NCBI GenBank assembly: GCA_005191425.1
Contig: SUPR01000031.1
Span: 3,823 to 35,822 of the forward strand
Length of the DNA stretch: 32,000 nucleotides
Direction of reading: 5' to 3'
Origin: Candidatus Helarchaeota ASGARD archaeon Hel_GB_B
GTDB taxonomy: Archaea; Asgardarchaeota; Lokiarchaeia; Helarchaeales; HEL-GB-B
Shown here: one piece after another, positions 2,684 to 12,848 of the stretch
How positions within the stretch are numbered: position 1 is the first letter of the stretch
Layout of the letters: the number at the start of each line of letters is the position of its first letter
Translations under genes and position numbers: made by a program
Notes under the pieces: model-generated
What the model saw: only the letters and a program-made list of their open reading frames with translations
Database searches by the model: none
Told to the model about the DNA's origin: nothing

Positions 2684-4681
2684 TTAAACTCTTAACCCTG
2701 CCTTATAACCATCGTTAATTGCATCTAATGCTTTTCTAGGTTTTTTAGCATCACCAATTATACGAATTTGAAAACCACTTTCTTTTAGTTTATCTGCAAA
2801 TTCGCGATCTTTTTTAACACCTGTAGCAATTATAACATTATCGGCTTTGATTTCTTGTATTTTATCACCTGTTTTTACGATTACATTGTCAACGGTAATT
2901 TCTAATACTTCTGAACTTGTTAATTGTCTGATCTCTTTATACCGTAAATCTTTCATCATGGTCCATCTTGTAGACCTACCAATATTACCACCTAATTTTG
3001 GTAATATGTCTATAATAGTCACATTCTTTAGTCCTTTACGATAATAGTGTAATGCTTCGTCAATTGATAGAACTTTATGCTGAATCATAAACATTGCAAT
3101 TTCTGATGAAATAGAACCCATTTCCGAAACATAAAGAGCAGTTTCAACGCCCGTTGCTCCCCCGCCAATAATTACAATATCATCTTTTAGGAGAACATTT
3201 CCAAGCAAAACATCCTTAGCTTTCACAACATGAGGGAGGTCAATTCCTTTTATGGGGGGTATTATATCTTTACCTCCAGCAGCATAAACTATTTCATCTG
3301 GGTTTATTTTCTTAACAATATCTAGAGTACATTCTGTATTTAATATTACATTAACCCTTAGTTTGTCTAATTGGTTTTTTAACCAATCAATAGCCCTCAT
3401 AAATTCTTGTCGACCTGGAGGAATTGCAGCTAAATAAAATGCACCACCCAAATAACTATCTTTTTCGTATAATATAACATCATGGCCTCGCATTTTTGCG
3501 ACCATGGCGGCTTCCATGCCACCAACACCACCACCAATGACTAAAATTTTCTTTTTCTCTTTTGCAGGAGTAATTGCATATTGATCTTCTCGGCCTGCAG
3601 CAGGGTTTTGAAGACATGTAATTGGTTGCGCTTCAAAAACCATATCAAAACAGCCTTGTGCACAACCTATACACCACCTAATATCATCATACCTACATTC
3701 TTTAACTTTTTGAACAATATATGGATCACAAATAAGTGGTCGGCCCCAACCAATTAAGTCGCAATAGTTATTTTTAAGTAATTTTTCTGCTGTTTGTAAA
3801 TCATGAATTCTATGGCATTCTACTACTGGTATATTTACTGTTTTTCTAATTTCATAAGTCATAAATGAAAATGCACCATGTGGAACATTAGAAGTAAGTT
3901 GAGGAGTTTTTGAGGTATGCCAAGCACCAGCAATGTCTAAAACATCAACACCAGCTTTTTCTAATAATGGAGCAACTTTTTTCCAATCTTTAAAAGATAA
4001 ACTTCCCGGGACAAGGTCATCATGGGGCATACGCCAAATTAATGGGAAATCACCTACATGATCTCTAATACTTTTTATAACTTCATATAAAAATGTCATT
4101 CTTTCTTCGAGTGTTTCTCCACCATATCGATCCTTCCTTTTATTTATTAAGGGCGATAAAAATTGGCAAGGTAAATACCCAGTATTTCCGCAAACTTGAA
4201 CCGCATCAAATCCAGCTTCTTTTAACCTAGCCGAAGCAAGGCCATAGTCTTCAACTATTTGTTCGATCTCTTTTATTGTTAATTCACGTGCAACTTTTCT
4301 AGCAAACGGGGCATCACATTCTGAAGGAGCTACTAACTCCCCAATTACGCCAAAACGCCCAGCATGATATAATTGCGCTGCACATTTAGTCCCATATTGA
4401 TGAATTGTATCAGCAAACTCTCTCAAACCTGGAATAAATTCATCAGAGCCTAAGTTTGGCATTGTAGGTGCTCCCCCTGAAAATTCCGAGAAGTTGCACC
4501 CACCTATTACAATCATTCCAACTCCACCTTTTGCTCTTTCTTCGTAAAATCTTATAAATTTCTTCGTTATCGCTCCTTTTGAATCTGCATAAGATAAATG
4601 CATTGATGGCATGTAAATTCTGTTTGAAAGAATAAGATTATCTTTAATTTTTAATGGTTCCAATAACATCAATTTTATCAT
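2684..4681 (-). CDS. NADH:flavin oxidoreductase, 2,4-dienoyl-CoA reductase (FadH)-like (OYE barrel + 4Fe-4S + FAD/NAD domains)
   Basis: ERAKGGVG, AQLYHAGR, GYLPCQFLSPLINKRKDRYGG, CIGCAQGC...C cluster motif, VIGGGVGGMEAA and IIGGGATGVETA dinucleotide-binding motifs. 665 aa. Confidence 0.88.
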   Translation of the reverse strand: MIKLMLLEPLKIKDNLILSNRIYMPSMHLSYADSKGAITKKFIRFYEERAKGGVGMIVIGGCNFSEFSGGAPTMPNLGSDEFIPGLREFADTIHQYGTKCAAQLYHAGRFGVIGELVAPSECDAPFARKVARELTIKEIEQIVEDYGLASARLKEAGFDAVQVCGNTGYLPCQFLSPLINKRKDRYGGETLEERMTFLYEVIKSIRDHVGDFPLIWRMPHDDLVPGSLSFKDWKKVAPLLEKAGVDVLDIAGAWHTSKTPQLTSNVPHGAFSFMTYEIRKTVNIPVVECHRIHDLQTAEKLLKNNYCDLIGWGRPLICDPYIVQKVKECRYDDIRWCIGCAQGCFDMVFEAQPITCLQNPAAGREDQYAITPAKEKKKILVIGGGVGGMEAAMVAKMRGHDVILYEKDSYLGGAFYLAAIPPGRQEFMRAIDWLKNQLDKLRVNVILNTECTLDIVKKINPDEIVYAAGGKDIIPPIKGIDLPHVVKAKDVLLGNVLLKDDIVIIGGGATGVETALYVSEMGSISSEIAMFMIQHKVLSIDEALHYYRKGLKNVTIIDILPKLGGNIGRSTRWTMMKDLRYKEIRQLTSSEVLEITVDNVIVKTGDKIQEIKADNVIIATGVKKDREFADKLKESGFQIRIIGDAKKPRKALDAINDGYKAGLRV

Positions 4682-5197
4682 CTTTTAATTTAAATTCTAG
4701 AAAATAATAATTGAAAGTATATTGAATAACCTAAAAATTTTTTCATTAATATATTAACTTGAATTTTGAATTTCCGTAATAATTTTTCTTAATGATAACC
4801 GAATTACGACTTTTAAATGCTACTGATAATTATACTTACCACTTCTAACCTCTATTTAAGAAGCAAATTCGATATCTATTATAATTAATTAAATTACAAA
4901 TATCTTAGTAATAAGGACGATAAGAATTCTATTATTACATTCATTTACGTATTACTCGATTTTGATATAATGGTGATCAATACCGCAGAAGAAAGTCGGT
5001 TCCGAGGAGAGTTTAGTCGTGAAGAGAGATTTCTAGGTAAAATAGAGGTAATATAGAGTAATATCAATAATATTTAAAGGTGAGAATCCATAATTATAAT
5101 CGTGAACTCACAGTTTTTAGCCATTAAATGGTGATACAAACACGACAGGGTGTCTATTGAGTGCACACCAATTCATTTGGTACCAATAGAATTGTAA

Positions 5198-5569
5198 TTA
5201 TTTGACAGGTTATTCATTTTTAACTATATTTTATTAAAAATTATAGATGATGTTTATAATAAGACGGGAACTTTTTGGGAGTTTTATAATTCTGGAGCAG
5301 GTTAAGTTAATGATGTATATGGGAAAAGTTGGTGGACACCAGCATCAGATTGTATAGGTTGGGATGGCTTAAGTTCCAATTTAATAATTGAAAAATTGAT
5401 TGGTATTGCTTATAACAATTCAGGAATTTTATTTAACCCATTAATCCCTGCAGAATGGAATTCATTGAAGATTGTTTTATCTTTAAATCTAATTGATTTA
5501 AATTTAACTCTTAAAAATAACCGAATTAAAGGAGACCTTTTTTTAAAAATCAATATTTCAACAATTTAA
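5198..5569 (+). pseudogene. Degraded C-terminal fragment of an (alpha/alpha)6 glycoside hydrolase (GH63/MGH1/trehalase-like)
   Basis: One frame reads ...DDVYNKTGTFWEFYNSGAG*VNDVYGKSWWTPASDCIGWDGLSSNLIIEKLIGIAYNNSGILFNPLIPAEWNSL...ISTI*. Internal TAA at 5303-5305, terminal TAA 5567-5569, no start or intact N-terminus. Family call is from motif recall. Confidence 0.6.
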
Positions 5570-5699
5570 CAATTGTAGATTTAGCTCATTTAAACCAGGA
5601 CACATATTCAATAAGATCAATTCAGTTTAATTTTACGAATTTTGGACATTACTTGTTCTTAATAAAATAAAAAAAAGTAAAATATAGATTATAAAAAAA

Positions 5700-6581
5700 T
5701 TAACATATAGTACATTTTTTAAAGTACATAATATACTTGTTTGTACCTAGAATAGCAACAGTAGGGTCAGCAACAATACCTGTAAAACCCGAAATTAGAT
5801 TTTGAGCTATGAAAGTTAGTCCGCTGCTGTTATATTCTGCAACTGATATATTTTTACCATTATGAAGATAAGTATAATATTTCCCGCTAATAACAACAGT
5901 AGATGCAAGCCACCCTTGTGAAAATGAGAAGGAAGTATCTTCTGTAAAATTACCCGTTGCAGAATTACTTGTTGCTTTAATTAATTGGTTCCCAGTATTT
6001 ACAAAAAGCACCCATCCACCTGTTGAGTTTTGAAATAAATCTGGATCAGTAATCCTATCTTTAGTGAATATAACGGCTTCTTCATTAAAATTAATACCAT
6101 TATCAGATACGGCTGTAACAATTTTATGATTAATTCCGGATGGATTGAGATTACCTAAATATGTTAAACGTATTTTACTACCATCTACAATAGGTGCTGG
6201 ATCAACCGGCATTGGACTATTTGTCCCGTTAATTGAAACGGCATATATACTATAAGTTGACCCATTATTATGACTTATAGCTACTTTTAATGAGCCACAG
6301 ATCCCATCTACAAAATATACATAAATACTTCCATTAAAATAAACAGCTCCCGGCACAGAAGCATGATTAAAAAGAAGTGTATAATTTACAGTCCAATTTA
6401 TTCCATCAGTAGAAGTTGCACAGTAAATCTGGTGATAATATGGGCCTCCTTCTGGCATTTTAGTGTTCTTTTGCAGATTAAAAATAACTATAGGAATAAT
6501 TATTGCACCAACAATGATTATAACCAATAGAAGGGAAAATAGTACTATATTCTTTTTTGAAACCAATTTTATCATTCTCAT
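5700..6581 (-). CDS. Membrane-anchored or secreted five-bladed beta-propeller protein (Asp-box/BNR-like repeats, GH43/GH32 clan-like)
   Basis: N-terminal hydrophobic segment (IVLFSLLLVIIIVGAIIIPIVIF); repeats ATSTDGINW, AISHNNGSTY, AVSDNGINF, ATSNSATGNF; DP motifs VDPAP, TDPDL, ADPTV; 9 N-x-S/T sequons. Confidence 0.7.
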   Translation of the reverse strand: MRMIKLVSKKNIVLFSLLLVIIIVGAIIIPIVIFNLQKNTKMPEGGPYYHQIYCATSTDGINWTVNYTLLFNHASVPGAVYFNGSIYVYFVDGICGSLKVAISHNNGSTYSIYAVSINGTNSPMPVDPAPIVDGSKIRLTYLGNLNPSGINHKIVTAVSDNGINFNEEAVIFTKDRITDPDLFQNSTGGWVLFVNTGNQLIKATSNSATGNFTEDTSFSFSQGWLASTVVISGKYYTYLHNGKNISVAEYNSSGLTFIAQNLISGFTGIVADPTVAILGTNKYIMYFKKCTIC

Positions 6582-6845
6582 TTATTTGAATTTTAATAAT
6601 TTTTTAATTTGACAAATTAATTAAAATTATTATTTAAATAATTTTTAATGCTAAATAATAATTTATAAATAATTTTTAAATTTTGATGAAAAATTATTAT
6701 TATTTATGTCTTAAACCCGACTGTATTCATATTTGATTATAATATTTGATTTTAAAATATGTATTTTTTATCTACGTCATTTATTAAATTTCTTGATGTT
6801 TTTAAAATAATTCAAGCGTATTTTAAATTTAATAATGAATAAATA

Positions 6846-7148
6846 TCAGAGATATTCCTTTAACTTTTCAATTGTATTTTTCCCATAATCTGTAATTTCA
6901 TAATAAACATATCTATTTATTTTTTCTTTTTTTATTAAGTTTAATTTGACCAGTTCATTTAGGTATAACCTAATACCAGAGGATGTCCTTTTTACTTTTC
7001 GAGCAATCTGAGCTTGGTAGAGTGGAGCATCATTATCAAGCAGTATCTTGATTATTTTGAATTTTATTTTGTTTGCCTTTAATTTGAACATATTTATGAA
7101 TTCTTCTTCGCTAAATTTTTTCCAGATAGTTTCTTTTTGTTTAGACAT
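6846..7148 (-). CDS. Winged-helix transcriptional regulator (ArsR/MarR-like)
   Basis: 100 aa; KIIKILL...QAQIARKVKRTSSGIRLYLNELVKLNLI...YYEITDYG helix-turn-helix plus wing. Confidence 0.85.
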   Translation of the reverse strand: MSKQKETIWKKFSEEEFINMFKLKANKIKFKIIKILLDNDAPLYQAQIARKVKRTSSGIRLYLNELVKLNLIKKEKINRYVYYEITDYGKNTIEKLKEYL

Positions 7149-7317
7149 TTATCTCAATTCTTGAATGTTAATAAGAATAATAAATTTCAGTTTATTTTCA
7201 AATTAATATTTAAATAATCAAATGATATGAATTAAAACCAATTAAATTTTATTAATAGAGTTAGAGTCAATTATTATTCTTTTAGAGATTATTTTTTGAG
7301 GATATAAGTGTAAGGTT

Positions 7318-7830
7318 TCATATTTTATTTTTTTCTAATAAAGAGAATGCGAGATTAACTGCGTCTATACCATTTTTTGCAGAAAATACTCGGTAATTTT
7401 TATTATTTACATATTTATTGTAGAATTCTTCAGACACACCACCAGATTTGGGTATTGTTATCAATGTTTTATTTAGTTTCAAGGAATAATTTGCCTCTAT
7501 TCTGGTACCTAAAACTCCAGCAATACAAATCAAAATATCAGATGATTGGACTACCAGAAAATTTCTATTTTCGCCCATATTAGTAGGGATCTTAATTGTG
7601 ACATATTGATTAGCTTCATCTGGGCTTATTGATGGTAAAATACCAACGCTTATACCATTAAAGTCATGACAACCTTTACATGCTGATTCCATTACTCCGC
7701 CTTTACCCCCACAAATTAAAATACCCTTCTTTCTTGCTATTTCCGCTCCTACATCATAGGCTATCTTTTTAATATCATTAGATATACCAATGCCACTCCC
7801 GATCACACCAATTTGGAACATTTTAAACAC
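7318..7830 (-). CDS. TIGR00725 / LOG (SLOG) family Rossmann-fold nucleotide-binding protein
   Basis: IGVIGSG, ICGGKGGVMESACKG, VGILP, TNMGENRNFLVVQSSD, GVLGTRIE. Confidence 0.85.
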   Translation of the reverse strand: MFKMFQIGVIGSGIGISNDIKKIAYDVGAEIARKKGILICGGKGGVMESACKGCHDFNGISVGILPSISPDEANQYVTIKIPTNMGENRNFLVVQSSDILICIAGVLGTRIEANYSLKLNKTLITIPKSGGVSEEFYNKYVNNKNYRVFSAKNGIDAVNLAFSLLEKNKI

Positions 7831-7831
7831 A

Positions 7832-8632
7832 TTATAAAGTGATTTCCATTTCTTTATTTAATTCTAGTACTTGTAATTTAGTGTCAGGATGTTTTTCTTT
7901 TAATATTTTTTCAATTTTATCGATTTGATACATGTAATAATCGCTTAAAGGGGGAAACGAATCATCAAAATGTGTGGGAATAACCAATTTAGGACTGAAA
8001 ATTTCAATATATTTTATGGCATTTTTCCATGCATCTCTCCTTCCAGCAACAGGAATAATTAAGACATCCGTTGAATAATCTTCTTCTTTAAATAAATCTT
8101 TACTAAATCCTAATGACCCAAAAATAGTGACTTTTTTATTATCTTCTTTAAGTAAATTGAAAATCCACCCTAAAACTTCACCCTTTTTCCAGCTTATCAA
8201 ATCTTTACCTGAAACTAAAAGCTTGTAAGTACTCCATCTAAATATTTTTCGTATAATGGTCCCAAAATCAAAAGTAATATGTTTACCTTTAATAGCTTTT
8301 ACTGTAAAATCGTCCATCTCAAATGAATCGCCACTATTAACTTTGACCACTAAATTTTCGTCTAATCCTTTATTTTCAATTGCAACTTCTGCTGCAGGTG
8401 TAGAAACGTAAACCTTTATTCCCAGTTTTTTTACAAGATAAGGTGTATCTGCAAAATGATCAAAATGACCATGAGTAATAAAAATATAATCTGCTTTTTG
8501 GATCATATCTTTATTTATCTCAGGTTTAATAGGATATGCATTTTTAAACCTAGAAAGCCATGGATCCATTAAAATAATACTTGACCCGGTCTTAATTTCT
8601 AAAGCAGCGGTCCCAAGCCATCTTATTTTCAT
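7832..8632 (-). CDS. Metallo-beta-lactamase-fold hydrolase (UPF0173/UlaG-like)
   Basis: IRWLGTAALEI, DPW, THGHFDH metal-binding motif, VIPTHFD. Ends 1 nt before the TIGR00725-like gene. Confidence 0.88.
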   Translation of the reverse strand: MKIRWLGTAALEIKTGSSIILMDPWLSRFKNAYPIKPEINKDMIQKADYIFITHGHFDHFADTPYLVKKLGIKVYVSTPAAEVAIENKGLDENLVVKVNSGDSFEMDDFTVKAIKGKHITFDFGTIIRKIFRWSTYKLLVSGKDLISWKKGEVLGWIFNLLKEDNKKVTIFGSLGFSKDLFKEEDYSTDVLIIPVAGRRDAWKNAIKYIEIFSPKLVIPTHFDDSFPPLSDYYMYQIDKIEKILKEKHPDTKLQVLELNKEMEITL

Positions 8633-8675
8633 TTTTCATCACAATTTTAAATTTTTTTTATCATTATTTCTACCT

Positions 8676-8696
8676 TAATAATAATAATAATAATAA
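8676..8696. repeat. (TAA)7 trinucleotide microsatellite in a divergent intergenic region
   Basis: taataataataataataataa read directly at 8676-8696. Confidence 0.85.
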
Positions 8697-8920
8697 CAAT
8701 TTTAAATTTGCTTACATCCTTTAAGATTAAAAAAAAATATGAGTATAATAAAAAGGCCCAAGATTTCTGATTTATTATTAGTATTAGGTTAAATACCAAG
8801 AATAGTTATTTAGATTTCTCTAAAATATTGCCAAAATTTTCAATATATTTGGTAAAAAACTTGAATTTTATTTCCAAAAATAAATTTAGTAATAGAGAGT
8901 TTTTAATTTATTGATAAGGA

Positions 8921-9700
8921 ATGGAAACGACAACAATATCAAATAAGGATTCTGAAGTGGAAAAAAGAGTTCCAACTCTAATTAATGGTTTTGATAAATT
9001 AATTGAAGGAGGATTTGTAAAAAATAGTTTAAATTTGATTAGTGGGCCAGCAGGATCTGGGAAAACAATTTTTTGCTTGCAATACGTATATAATGGGGTA
9101 AAATATCTAAAAGAGCCCGGCGTTTTTATTACATTAGAAGAAAGCGTCGAAAGTATAAGAAGTTCAATGAAGAGATTTGGAATTGATTTAAGAAAATACG
9201 AGCGTCCTGACAAGTTTAGTCTTGCAGATTTGGGTGCAATAAGAAAAGAACTGTCAATTGAAGAAGAAGTTCAATCAGGTGGACTTTTAGATTTGGACTC
9301 GTTAATTGAATATATAAAAGGGGTAATAAGTCTGACAGATGCAAAAAGGCTTGTATTGGATTCATTGACGGCTATTGGAATTAAATACCATGAAACAAGT
9401 ACAATTCGACAGGCTTTATTTAGGTTGGGCAGATTTTTAAGAGATTTGGGAAGTACTGTTCTAGTGACGACAGAGTCGATCCCATACCAAAATAAATACA
9501 CCAGATTTGGTATTGAACAATTTATTGCAGACTCTTTTATTCTTTTAAATTTAACAGAAATAAATGGAATATTAAAAAGAACAATATTAGTAAGAAAAAT
9601 GAGGCATACTAATCATGATTTGCACGTTCACCCCTACAAAATAACTTCAAATGGAATAGAAATATTAAAAGGAAGAGATTTTTACAATATTAAATTTTAA
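8921..9700 (+). CDS. Single-domain KaiC/RAD55-like RecA-superfamily ATPase
   Basis: RVPTLINGFDKLIEGG, Walker A GPAGSGKT, ITLEES, Walker B LVLDS, VTTE, FIADSFILL, RKMRHTNHD..HPYKIT..GIEI. Confidence 0.9.
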   Translation: METTTISNKDSEVEKRVPTLINGFDKLIEGGFVKNSLNLISGPAGSGKTIFCLQYVYNGVKYLKEPGVFITLEESVESIRSSMKRFGIDLRKYERPDKFSLADLGAIRKELSIEEEVQSGGLLDLDSLIEYIKGVISLTDAKRLVLDSLTAIGIKYHETSTIRQALFRLGRFLRDLGSTVLVTTESIPYQNKYTRFGIEQFIADSFILLNLTEINGILKRTILVRKMRHTNHDLHVHPYKITSNGIEILKGRDFYNIKF

Positions 9701-9712
9701 AAAGGTGTTAAA

Positions 9713-10585
9713 ATGTTTAAAGGGCTGTTTATAATTGAAAATGATAATATTATATATAGTTTAGCTTTACAACAAAACATTTTTAATGTTGGTTATGATT
9801 ATTACTATGATTTTTTAAAGACTTCAGCAGATTGGGAAGAAAGACATGATTCAGAGATGATTTTTGATGTAATAGCTGGAAATGTCTGTTTATATTACAA
9901 ATATATCCAAAATTATAATTTAATTTTAGTAATAATTGTGGATTTATATAATAAAGGAGAGCAGATTAAGGAGATTTTTCGGGAGGTCAGTTCAATTTTA
10001 GAAGATAAATCTTTAGACCTTTTAAAGGATGACGCCCGTTTTAAGACATTTACGCAACTATTTTTAACATTTCAAGAACATATTCCAATTAAAATTTCAC
10101 TTGTCGGGTTTGGAGGGGTCGGAAAAACGACTATATTGAAATTACTAAAAGAACAAGAACTCCCTACTACCCATAATCCAACGATATTAGCCGATATTAC
10201 GCAATATAATTTAAATGGTATTCATTTCAATTTTTGGGATTTTGCAGGACAAGTTGCTTATAAAAATGTCTGGCCGAAACTAATTAATAAATCAGATTTG
10301 GTCATTGTAGTTACTGATTCTTCGCAGAAAAATGTATCTTTATCAAAATTTTTTCTTGATTTAATTTTAAACATTGTACCTTATTCTAAAAAAATTATCA
10401 TCGCAAATAAACAAGACACGCCAAATGCTATAGATGTACCACGTATTAATCAAATTTTAGGAGAAAATACTATTCCATTTGTTGCTATTGACCCAAATTA
10501 TAGATCAATTCTCTTAGAAAATATTTTTAATGCTTTAAACTTAATAACAGAGGGAGAACAAATTGTGATTCAATCAAATTATTAA
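9713..10585 (+). CDS. Small GTPase (Arf/Rab/Roc-like) with N-terminal longin-like domain
   Basis: G1 GFGGVGKTT, G2 PTI, G3 WDFAGQ, G4 NKQD. The N-terminal ~125 aa show a beta-beta-alpha-beta-beta-beta-alpha-alpha pattern consistent with a longin fold. AGGTG SD at 9703-9707. Confidence 0.8.
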   Translation: MFKGLFIIENDNIIYSLALQQNIFNVGYDYYYDFLKTSADWEERHDSEMIFDVIAGNVCLYYKYIQNYNLILVIIVDLYNKGEQIKEIFREVSSILEDKSLDLLKDDARFKTFTQLFLTFQEHIPIKISLVGFGGVGKTTILKLLKEQELPTTHNPTILADITQYNLNGIHFNFWDFAGQVAYKNVWPKLINKSDLVIVVTDSSQKNVSLSKFFLDLILNIVPYSKKIIIANKQDTPNAIDVPRINQILGENTIPFVAIDPNYRSILLENIFNALNLITEGEQIVIQSNY

Positions 10586-10652
10586 ATTTCTACTTTTAAT
10601 GCCATTTATTTAATCTGAAAAATATTTAAAAATGTAAATACAATTAATTACT

Positions 10653-11708
10653 ATGGAATTTTGGAAAAAATTTTTTATATTTGTTGGAATTCCATTCTTG
10701 ATTTTTTATATTTTTATGATCATAATATATTTTGCGTTTCTTAGCAGTATTTGGTTAGTCGCGTTAATTGTGGGCGTATTTTGTCTCCGTAAAAACAGAA
10801 TATGGTGAAGGCTTAGTAAATTATCAATAGCAATGTTCATTTGTGTTTTTATTTTAATTTCAAATCCGATTTACTGGCCTTCACAAATTTATAGACACTT
10901 AGATACTTCTACAATTATTACTCCTAACGCCCCGGCAGTTCAACATCTTAATGATACATCACAATTTTGGGCATACATAAATTCCACTTATGGAATAAAT
11001 GGACCATGTTACAAATCCTTAACTGATTATCAAAAAGTCCATTTGGTGGAACATTTTATCTTAGACAAAATTCAATATTTAAATATCCAATATATTTGGT
11101 TTGTAATTGACTATGTTGCAACTCCTACAGAAGTTTTAGAACGAGGAGTAGGCGATTGTCAGCATCGGACAGTTGTAATGGTCTCATTTCTTATTTACTT
11201 AGGATTTGATGCGTATTGTGCGGAGTGCCCATTGCATTGGTATCCAGTTGTATTTTTAAAAAATGGTTCTATTACTTATTTATATCATGTAAATTGGACG
11301 CAACCTGAAATCTTGATTAATGACCATAACAAAATTTTTTTAATGGATTTACCAACGAGACTTTATGACGCTCTAACCCATTTTTCACTCAATGAACCGT
11401 TAAATGCTCTATTAAACACGCCGTTTTTCTGGATTATATTGATCCCTCTTTCTTTTGGTATGTCCGGATCTTTAGTATTAATTATAAAAACATCAGGAAA
11501 CCCATCAAAAAAGAAAAACTTATACAATATTTTATTTGGTGGAATATCACTAATAATTGGTTTATTATTTACTACGATTTTAGGTAATATCTACATTCCA
11601 ATAAGTTTAACTATAATACTTATTACAATAATTATAACAGTCCAATTAATTAGCCATAATTTTTTTCTATTTAGAAAATTAAGCAGAAACAATAAGAATG
11701 TAAGTTAA
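10653..11708 (+). pseudogene. Membrane transglutaminase-like (Cys-His) protein, paralog 1, interrupted by in-frame TGA at 10806-10808
   Basis: ATG 10653 gives MEFWKKFFIFVGIPFLIFYIFMIIIYFAFLSSIWLVALIVGVFCLRKNRIW*RLSKLSIAMFICVF..., colinear with the intact paralog (MIWRKLFIFLGIPLLIFYIF...CLRKNKFWRRTTKMSIALF). The ORF-track Met 10833 is internal. GDCQ and HWY motifs intact. Confidence 0.8.
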
Positions 11709-11768: not shown

Positions 11769-12848
11769 ATGATTTGGCGTAAGTTATTCATTTTCTTAGG
11801 AATTCCTCTTTTGATATTTTATATTTTCATGATGACAATTTATTTTGGATTTATAAGCACGATTTGGTTTATAGCTTTATTAGTAGGGCTTAGCTGTTTA
11901 AGGAAAAATAAATTTTGGAGGAGGACGACAAAAATGTCCATAGCCCTTTTTATATTTATGTTTATATTAATATCAAATCCGTTATATTGGCCACAGCAAA
12001 TTATGCGACATTTAAATACTTCTTTAATAATAACGCCAAACGCACCGGCTATACAACAATTGAACGGGACATCTCCGGGTACCTTTTGGTATTACATGAA
12101 TACTACCCATAATGTTAATTCTTCTTTTTTTTATAACAATTTAAATGAACCCCAACAATTACACTATATAGAAGAATATGTCTTATGGAAAATTAAATAT
12201 ACATATATTTATAACGTCTATGGAGTAATTGATTACGTAGCAACTCCTACAGAGGCGCTCCAAGTAGGGACTGGAGATTGTCAGTCTAGAACAGTGGTCA
12301 TGACTTCTTTTTTGATATATTTAGGATATGATGCTTGGGCAGTAGAAACCCCCTTTCATTGGTATACTCGAGTTTATTTAACTAATGGGTCATATATATA
12401 TCTTTATCGTCATAATGGGACTGATCCCATTGTTAGAATAAATGACCATTCAGTAATTTTTGAAAAAAACGTATTTGAAATATCTTTATTAATTTTACAA
12501 CATAAAAAAATAAACGACCCTATTAATTATTTTATAAGACAGCCGATATTTTGGACGGTTTTAATTCCATTATCGTTTTTAATAGCATATATATTTGTAT
12601 TAATAATTAGGACCTCTGGAGTTCCAACACAGAAAAAGAAGATGACGAATATCTTGTTTGGTGGGACATTCTTAAACCTTGCATTTTTATTTATTTTAGC
12701 CATTTCGAGTCTATACCCACCAATCTCCGCAACATTATTATTAATTACAATAATTCTAGAAGTACAATTAATTAGTCACAATTTTTTTATGGCACCAGAG
12801 GCAGTTGATTTGGAAAATAGTAATAATAAATTGAAAGAAGGAAAATAA
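11769..12848 (+). CDS. Membrane transglutaminase-like cysteine protease-fold protein, paralog 2
   Basis: DYVATPTEALQVGTGDCQSRTVVMTSFLIYLG...HWY motif; hydrophobic segments at both ends; sequons NTS, NGT, NTT, NSS, NGS, NGT in the central domain. Confidence 0.8.
   Translation: MIWRKLFIFLGIPLLIFYIFMMTIYFGFISTIWFIALLVGLSCLRKNKFWRRTTKMSIALFIFMFILISNPLYWPQQIMRHLNTSLIITPNAPAIQQLNGTSPGTFWYYMNTTHNVNSSFFYNNLNEPQQLHYIEEYVLWKIKYTYIYNVYGVIDYVATPTEALQVGTGDCQSRTVVMTSFLIYLGYDAWAVETPFHWYTRVYLTNGSYIYLYRHNGTDPIVRINDHSVIFEKNVFEISLLILQHKKINDPINYFIRQPIFWTVLIPLSFLIAYIFVLIIRTSGVPTQKKKMTNILFGGTFLNLAFLFILAISSLYPPISATLLLITIILEVQLISHNFFMAPEAVDLENSNNKLKEGK

Follow-up and report, generated by a model that had tools for sequence, protein, structure and literature searches.

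A closely spaced gene pair for a KaiC-like ATPase and a longin-fused small GTPase in a Helarchaeota genome

In the genome of Candidatus Helarchaeota ASGARD archaeon Hel_GB_B (assembly GCA_005191425.1; 3.54 Mb, 94% complete), we analyzed a 32,000-nucleotide (nt) stretch of contig SUPR01000031.1, hereafter the window, which carries two adjacent genes encoding a single-domain KaiC-like ATPase, KaiC1, and a small GTPase with an N-terminal longin domain, GT1 (Table 1). The genes appear to form a bicistronic operon that brings together a CI-like KaiC ATPase and an Asgard-type (ArfL-like) longin-fused small GTPase. We favor, with moderate confidence, a functional link between the two products, which would act together as a switch built from two nucleoside triphosphatases (NTPases). 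Eukaryote-like small GTPases number in the dozens in each Asgard genome, and this tight two-gene unit gives one of them, as yet unexplained, a testable partner.

A conserved gene pair and its natural fusion

A search for the GT1 subfamily across 5.8 billion protein clusters yielded four separate members (P0001–P0004) and one fused protein (P0207). Every member for which upstream DNA is available has an ortholog of KaiC1 directly upstream, at a spacing of 12–27 nt (contigs L001; L002, L003, L004 and L186; and L190), and within the wider longin-GTPase family this is the only subfamily that we found with a KaiC gene in that position. Among the GT1 lineages, the KaiC proteins are 76–80% identical and the GTPases 59–64%.

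The fused protein comes from a strain of the same species as P0003. It is 538 amino acids (aa) long (L191, positions 6001–7617) and joins KaiC residues 1–249 directly to the first residues of the longin-GTPase. Alignment of the DNA with L186 and L002 traces the fusion to a clean in-frame deletion of 57 nt that takes out the spacer together with the final nine codons of KaiC and its stop, the flanks shown being otherwise identical. Such a fusion is what would be expected if both proteins work side by side, and it is suggestive of a shared function. Structure prediction of a KaiC1–GT1 complex, with both proteins entered as alignments, gave ipSAE scores (0.00 and 0.03) below the mark of 0.32, which we count as evidence neither way.

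In the open reading frame (ORF) map of the window the pair has intergenic gaps on both sides (288 nt upstream and 247 nt downstream), a layout that fits a separate two-gene unit. The promoter presumably lies in the upstream gap, and the transcription unit likely ends in the downstream one. A sigma-70 promoter scan returned 25 matches where 17 were expected, with a model that is inapplicable to archaea, and a scan for stem-loop terminators, of a kind unsuited to AT-rich archaeal sequence, found none at the locus. A preliminary description of this DNA, made from its letters and ORFs, had noted a 12-nt spacer with an AGGTG motif ahead of the second ORF and had described the two genes as apparently co-translated. 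The motif and the start codon stand where described, and the two genes behave as an operon: their spacing is tight, all relatives that we found keep the arrangement, and one strain has the genes fused.

Table 1. Features of the KaiC1–GT1 locus, in positions of the window.
Feature	Positions	Strand	Description
MBL-fold hydrolase gene	7832–8632	−	divergent from the KaiC1 gene
Upstream intergenic region	8633–8920	+	AT-rich; common to the divergent MBL-fold hydrolase gene (ORF map)
KaiC1 gene	8921–9700	+	259 aa; Pfam PF06745
KaiC1 stop codon	9698–9700	+
Spacer	9701–9712	+	12 nt; Shine-Dalgarno-like AGGTG at 9703–9707, 5 nt before the GT1 ATG at 9713
GT1 gene	9713–10585	+	290 aa
GT1 longin domain	9713–10081	+	residues 1–123; AlphaFold2 model, structural matches
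GT1 Arf-like small GTPase domain	10082–10585	+	residues 124–290; Pfam Arf
GT1 G1	10106–10129	+	GFGGVGKT, residues 132–139
GT1 G2	10181–10183	+	T157
GT1 G3	10238–10252	+	DFAGQ, residues 176–180; catalytic Gln Q180
GT1 G4	10406–10417	+	NKQD, residues 232–235
GT1 G5-equivalent, A258	10484–10486	+	within VAID
Downstream intergenic region	10586–10832	+	T-rich (ORF map, sequence)

KaiC–GTPase neighborhoods in the same genome and across Asgard archaea

The genome of Hel_GB_B holds further loci in which a KaiC-superfamily gene lies close to a small GTPase gene. On contig C150 (L085, 17000–28000; positions 4529–7916 of L085), a paralog that we call KaiC2 (278 aa, 31% identical to KaiC1) is encoded 11 nt ahead of the gene for an Arf-family GTPase of 324 aa, the G domain of which matches PF00025 with an E-value of 5e-43. 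The N-terminal extension of this GTPase is modeled as a longin (predicted local distance difference test score, pLDDT, 90) and resembles NPRL2/NPRL3, FLCN/FNIP, Lst4 and a solved Lokiarchaeota longin (Foldseek E-values 2e-5 to 1e-3); judged from the model, it is a longin of the NPRL2/FLCN type. The catalytic Glu pair is missing from KaiC2, which reads LLKNQ where the family has TLEE. We also considered a common origin of the C150 and GT1 longins and set it aside, since the hhalign profile–profile probability of 0.5% is not significant; the two are either of different subtypes or too diverged. Two genes on the opposite strand converge on the KaiC2 operon; they encode a 176-aa Rab-like GTPase and a protein with a TackOD1 domain.

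On contig C129 (L182, 16000–24720; positions 4009–8434 of L182), four genes in a row run in the same direction. The first encodes a Roadblock–Ras-like GTPase fusion of 316 aa and is followed by genes for a 212-aa CYTH-like protein, a GvpD/KaiC-like ATPase of 473 aa and a 387-aa Rce1-like CPBP protease, which places the Roadblock-GTPase two genes from the KaiC-superfamily ATPase. Across the source genome, a small GTPase is encoded no more than 1.5 kb from three of the ten KaiC-superfamily ORFs, compared with 5.3% of other ORFs (permutation P 0.013). In a Lokiarchaeia family (f3; L119–L145), proteins homologous to the C150 longin-Arf GTPase make up roughly the first 310 residues of open frames of ~1130 aa; no KaiC lies within 1.5 kb of these frames.

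Juxtaposition of KaiC and GTPase genes recurs in other Asgard lineages. From 300 Asgard genomes we took the best KaiC2-like genes and surveyed the 29 loci that carry them; at least 16 of these loci have a small GTPase gene within ~350 nt of the KaiC2-like gene: co-directional and immediately downstream at 11 loci, divergent at four, and cut at the locus end at one. Most of these GTPases are Rab/Ras-like, and the linked loci come from Freyarchaeia, Heimdallarchaeota and two further families. Candidatus Freyarchaeum has a GvpD-like ATPase gene followed by KaiC and then the GTPase gene, and on one related contig a Roadblock gene stands between KaiC and GTPase.

Two of the surveyed neighborhoods are richer in composition. 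In a Heimdallarchaeota locus (L180, G025:C51:4000-16000; positions 3260–8964), KaiC lies between a divergent Rab-like GTPase and a block encoding a 445-aa protein, a V4R protein of 474 aa (TRAPPC3-like superfamily) and a 319-aa Ras-like GTPase with an N-terminal extension. Another locus (L179, G114:C23:9000-20000; positions 2997–6239) is a minus-strand operon for KaiC (258 aa), a Rab-like GTPase (184 aa), a GvpD/KaiC-like ATPase (484 aa) and a response-regulator receiver (149 aa); its KaiC and GTPase part recurs in ~10 genomes of family f14.

A tree of KaiC sequences groups the GTPase-linked KaiC2-like genes in a single clade (17 of 28 rows). KaiC1 and its ortholog are placed within the other clade, on a long branch, and no other member of that clade is GTPase-linked. 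Because KaiC1 falls in a different clade from the GTPase-linked KaiC2-like genes, the tree suggests that the pair in the window is a second, independent juxtaposition, subject to the uncertain placement of the long branch. The closest non-orthologous relatives of KaiC1, 45–53% identical, occur in metagenome-assembled genomes of Thermoplasmatota and Halobacteriota, and the best non-orthologous Asgard matches are only 36–42% identical; horizontal acquisition or fast evolution after pairing are possible explanations of these relationships. The idea that the nearest non-Asgard relatives belong to KaiC–Roadblock clusters was discarded: in their contexts (L187, L188 and L189) we found genes for an Lhr helicase, an AsnC regulator and a protein of 2053 aa, and neither a Roadblock nor a GTPase gene.

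The main alternative to a functional link is that the two genes of the window are co-transcribed but functionally unrelated, with KaiC1 serving some other circuit and GT1 being one more stand-alone ArfL paralog; their adjacency would have arisen once, in a recent ancestor of a few Helarchaeales-like species, and been inherited with the block around it. Several observations weigh on that side and against our interpretation. The pair is confined to close relatives: synteny over more than 10 kb is common among the five GT1 lineages (MBL hydrolase and SLOG genes upstream; genes for transglutaminase-like membrane proteins, DUF1847 and an aminotransferase downstream), and since these lineages share surrounding genes, conserved adjacency alone could be inheritance. 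Beyond them the partner is missing, with no KaiC within 5 kb at any of 80 loci of the wider longin-GTPase family, even at a tblastn E-value of 1, no GTPase within 1.5 kb at any of 29 loci of the nearest Asgard relatives of KaiC1, and unrelated neighbors at the three loci of its closest non-orthologous relatives outside Asgard. The fusion is suggestive rather than decisive, because it comes from a single assembly and chance alone would preserve the reading frame in one of three deletions spanning the stop codon. Finally, the enrichment in the source genome is modest, and kin loci are non-independent.

Set against an unrelated adjacency are the tight spacing, conserved at 12–27 nt, the in-frame fusion variant, the two further adjacencies of a KaiC-superfamily gene and a longin- or Roadblock-GTPase gene in the same genome, which are made of non-orthologous parts, and the KaiC–GTPase pairs of other Asgard classes. 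On balance we consider unrelated adjacency possible but rather unlikely, and prefer an operon pair acting as a two-NTPase switch. The conserved operon would provide a defined two-protein system for testing, as would the single-chain fusion and the parallel pairs in other classes. A wider proposal, which we put forward only tentatively, is that Asgard archaea have recruited KaiC-family ATPases repeatedly, and as a general rule, to partner small GTPases under longin or Roadblock regulation. The pair in the window would be an independently evolved instance, with a KaiC of another clade and coupled tightly enough to have become a single KaiC–longin–GTPase chain in one strain. If so, an archaeal hexameric ATPase hub would have been wired to the GTPase-regulator folds later used in eukaryotic TRAPP, Rag/GATOR/FLCN and adaptor complexes.

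Domain structure and motifs of KaiC1 and GT1

KaiC1 matches the Pfam family PF06745 as a single domain over residues 17–250 (E-value 7.3e-65; 219 bits, cut-off 26.6), covering profile positions 1–228 of 231, which bears out the single-domain KaiC-like ATPase first read as ending at position 9700. Its Walker A motif is GPAGSGKT (residues 42–49). The catalytic Glu pair E73/E74 and the Walker B residue D147 are conserved in the KaiC alignment and aligned to their counterparts in KaiC CI; R228, likewise conserved, aligns to an Arg of the CI domain, at what we take to be the position of the CI arginine finger. Judged by these motifs, KaiC1 is a catalytically intact ATPase.

The best sequence matches of KaiC1 in the PDB are the CI domain of cyanobacterial KaiC (150 bits, compared with 55 bits for CII) and the single-domain homologs PH0186 (2zts; 183 bits) and PH0284 (2dr3) from archaea, all of which agree with it in Walker A, the EE pair, Walker B and the Arg. 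By sequence, then, KaiC1 is CI-like rather than CII-like. In a HMMER alignment, the residues opposite the CII phosphosites S431 and T432 are Q200 and F201, and the CI-type Glu is retained at E199. KaiC1 consists of one domain, with no CI+CII tandem as in circadian KaiC, and scores well below the cut-offs of the circadian models NF006799 (189 bits, cut-off 408) and TIGR02655 (145 bits, cut-off 546). A search of the source genome for KaiB, its completeness as given above, gave a best PF07689 match of 21.9 bits, under the cut-off of 27.

These results bear on a further alternative, in which KaiC1 is a true autokinase, a clock-like or timer protein, and its phosphorylation state is read by the GTPase. 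The preliminary description had called KaiC1 an autokinase, and membership of the KaiC family and intact ATPase motifs are compatible with that role. The label is nevertheless unsupported, because the protein has a single CI-like domain without the canonical phosphosites, falls below the circadian cut-offs and lacks a KaiB above cut-off in its genome; we regard an autokinase timer as very improbable. A platform dependent on its ATP state, as for CI, is the better analogy for KaiC1.

No Pfam family, the longin families included, matches GT1 residues 1–122; one homolog in its family (P0097, from Odinarchaeum) matches PF19036, Fuz_longin_1. An AlphaFold2 model of residues 1–123, built from an alignment of 64 homologous N-terminal domains (pLDDT 81.9; predicted template modeling score 0.78), has the longin order strand-strand-helix-strand-strand-strand-helix-helix (DSSP: E2-9, E12-18, H21-37, E51-55, E58-65, E70-77, H82-98, H107-122) and is without the N-terminal helix typical of Roadblock domains. 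In a Foldseek search of the PDB, longins came out on top (AP mu/sigma, TRAPP subunits, VAMP7, SRX, Ykt6 and COPZ), with borderline E-values of about 1e-3, and the MglB and LAMTOR Roadblocks ranked below them. VIA-align, which is independent of Foldseek, gave Z scores of 13.3–12.0 over 111–119 residues (root-mean-square deviation 2.4–3.1) to TRAPPC2, TRAPPC2L, TRAPPC4, AP mu/sigma and VAMP7, and 13.3–10 over 104–120 residues across a wider set of longins that includes Sec22 and SRX, compared with about 8 for Roadblock domains. The predicted structure thus makes the N-terminal domain a longin fold, as had been surmised from the pattern of strands and helices in the first ~125 aa.

The remainder of GT1 is, by its motifs, a complete small GTPase. 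Residues 123–258 match Arf (PF00025, E-value 4e-21), Roc and Ras, all above cut-offs, and the nearest solved sequences are eukaryotic Arf/Arl proteins (E-value 1e-13). The first reading had G1–G4 clear and G5 degenerate. G1–G4 are indeed invariant in an alignment of 20 family members, and it is the second half of that statement that needs amending: in the G5-equivalent VAID, A258 is invariant, and I259 and P261 are at least 90% conserved in the family, which marks a divergent but conserved family motif, not a decayed one. A Rag/Gtr identity for GT1 was rejected, as the protein ends ~30 residues after G5 with no Roadblock domain behind its G domain, has an N-terminal longin and gives no match to PF04670.

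GT1 belongs to a family of 1425 homologs, almost all from Asgard metagenome-assembled genomes, throughout which the N-terminal domain can be aligned; close homologs carry the names Helarchaeota or Promethearchaeota. The GT1 subfamily is small and divergent within it (~35% identical to the remaining family), and GT1 is without the ~55-aa C-terminal helical tail borne by most members, which are mostly 345–351 aa long. Ras-family matches in the source genome number 43. The N-terminus of GT1 is a longin, not the amphipathic helix of eukaryote-type Arf. According to Vargova et al., the Asgard 'Arf-like' ArfL proteins are an Asgard-only group that lies outside the Arf/ArfR clade and is not directly related to eukaryotic Arf.

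Proposed switch, known systems and flanking genes

In the mechanism that we propose, a KaiC1 ring would act as an ATP-state-dependent platform whose ATP or ADP state controls binding and release of the longin-GTPase. The GT1 longin would be an in-cis regulatory and dimerizing platform for the G domain, and the nucleotide state of one enzyme would gate the other. Physical contact between KaiC1 and GT1, the direction of control and the cellular output are putative elements of this scheme. If the link is real, proto-eukaryotic GTPase switches would have been plugged into archaeal ATPase signaling before membrane trafficking existed.

Each half of the scheme has precedents. The CI ring of the cyanobacterial clock engages its partners depending on its state of hydrolysis; KaiC1 differs from cyanobacterial KaiC in that it is a one-domain protein, lacks the CII phosphosites and has neither KaiA nor KaiB as a partner. 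In the archaellum motor, the KaiC-like protein ArlH binds and modulates another hexameric NTPase, ArlI, a precedent for a single-domain KaiC-like protein that acts by direct contact with a second NTPase. ArlI is a secretion-type ATPase rather than a small GTPase, and KaiC1 scores 42 bits with the ArlH model, the cut-off of which is 215. Longin and Roadblock platforms regulate Rab, Rag and MglA GTPases. Such platforms include the TRAPP core, Mon1–Ccz1, MglB–MglA, Ragulator–Rag and SRX–SRbeta. The fold of GT1 residues 1–123, which goes together with an Arf/SRbeta-like G domain, matches TRAPPC2, TRAPPC2L, TRAPPC4, AP mu/sigma, VAMP7 and SRX at Z 10–13; GT1 differs in that its platform is fused in cis to the GTPase and no trafficking components lie nearby. 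Archaeal KaiC-like ATPases are reportedly signal-transduction hubs, a view attributed to a 2017 mBio article by Makarova, Galperin and Koonin. The likeness to such hubs is a gene for a single-domain KaiC/RAD55-type ATPase beside that for a variable signaling partner, and the difference is that the partner at this locus is a eukaryote-like longin-GTPase.

Longin-GTPases themselves have been known since 2016. PMC4917890 cites Klinger et al. (2016) for five longin domains fused to lokiarchaeal Arf-like GTPases, and in MK-D1 longin-GTPase, GTPase-Roadblock and longin-GTPase-Roadblock architectures have been reported (Tran et al., 2024; PMC10933270). The same study states that MK-D1 GTPase genes generally lie outside operons of presumed regulators, and that matching individual small GTPases to their GTPase-activating proteins or guanine nucleotide exchange factors is hard from genome layout. 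GT1 has the N-terminal longin and following Arf-like G domain of these longin-fused ArfL proteins and departs from them in its low identity, its missing tail and the KaiC gene directly upstream. In the searchable literature, which did not include the 2017 mBio article, we found no paper joining KaiC, Asgard and GTPase. The preliminary description had proposed an undescribed system; as far as these sources go, that is true of the pairing with KaiC, which is new within the literature searched, and not of the longin–Arf-like fusion.

The genes around the pair raise one more alternative, that KaiC1 and GT1 are the output arm of a larger module comprising the MBL hydrolase, a SLOG (LDcluster4) nucleotide-binding protein and two transglutaminase-like membrane proteins, in which a nucleotide-derived signal or a membrane event is sensed and passed on to KaiC and the GTPase. 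All six genes stand in the same order in the window, L001, L002, L185 and L191. The relatives have the rest of the region in common too, however, so the block carries no independent signal, and the KaiC–GTPase loci of C150, C129, Freyarchaeum and Heimdallarchaeota are without MBL, SLOG or transglutaminase-like genes. Nor is there a significant PADLOC defense match. We consider a larger module improbable and retain the two-gene switch as the preferred interpretation. A reading of the region as a defense system was likewise rejected, PADLOC matches being found only at E-values above 3e-4 and with no noteworthy matched stretches.

The two membrane proteins are multi-pass paralogs (window positions 10833–11708 and 11769–12848) with weak transglutaminase-core matches (PF01841, E-value ~4e-3, under the cut-off), and in relatives they are kept directly downstream of the KaiC1–GT1 pair. 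Further upstream, positions 4682–5699 form a ~1-kb stretch without any ORF of at least 60 aa. A tblastn search with the Roadblock proteins of L001, L185 and L191 found no Roadblock remnant in the window; in those three relatives, a Roadblock/LC7 gene occupies the corresponding stretch, between an FMN oxidoreductase gene and a gene for a 290-aa protein.

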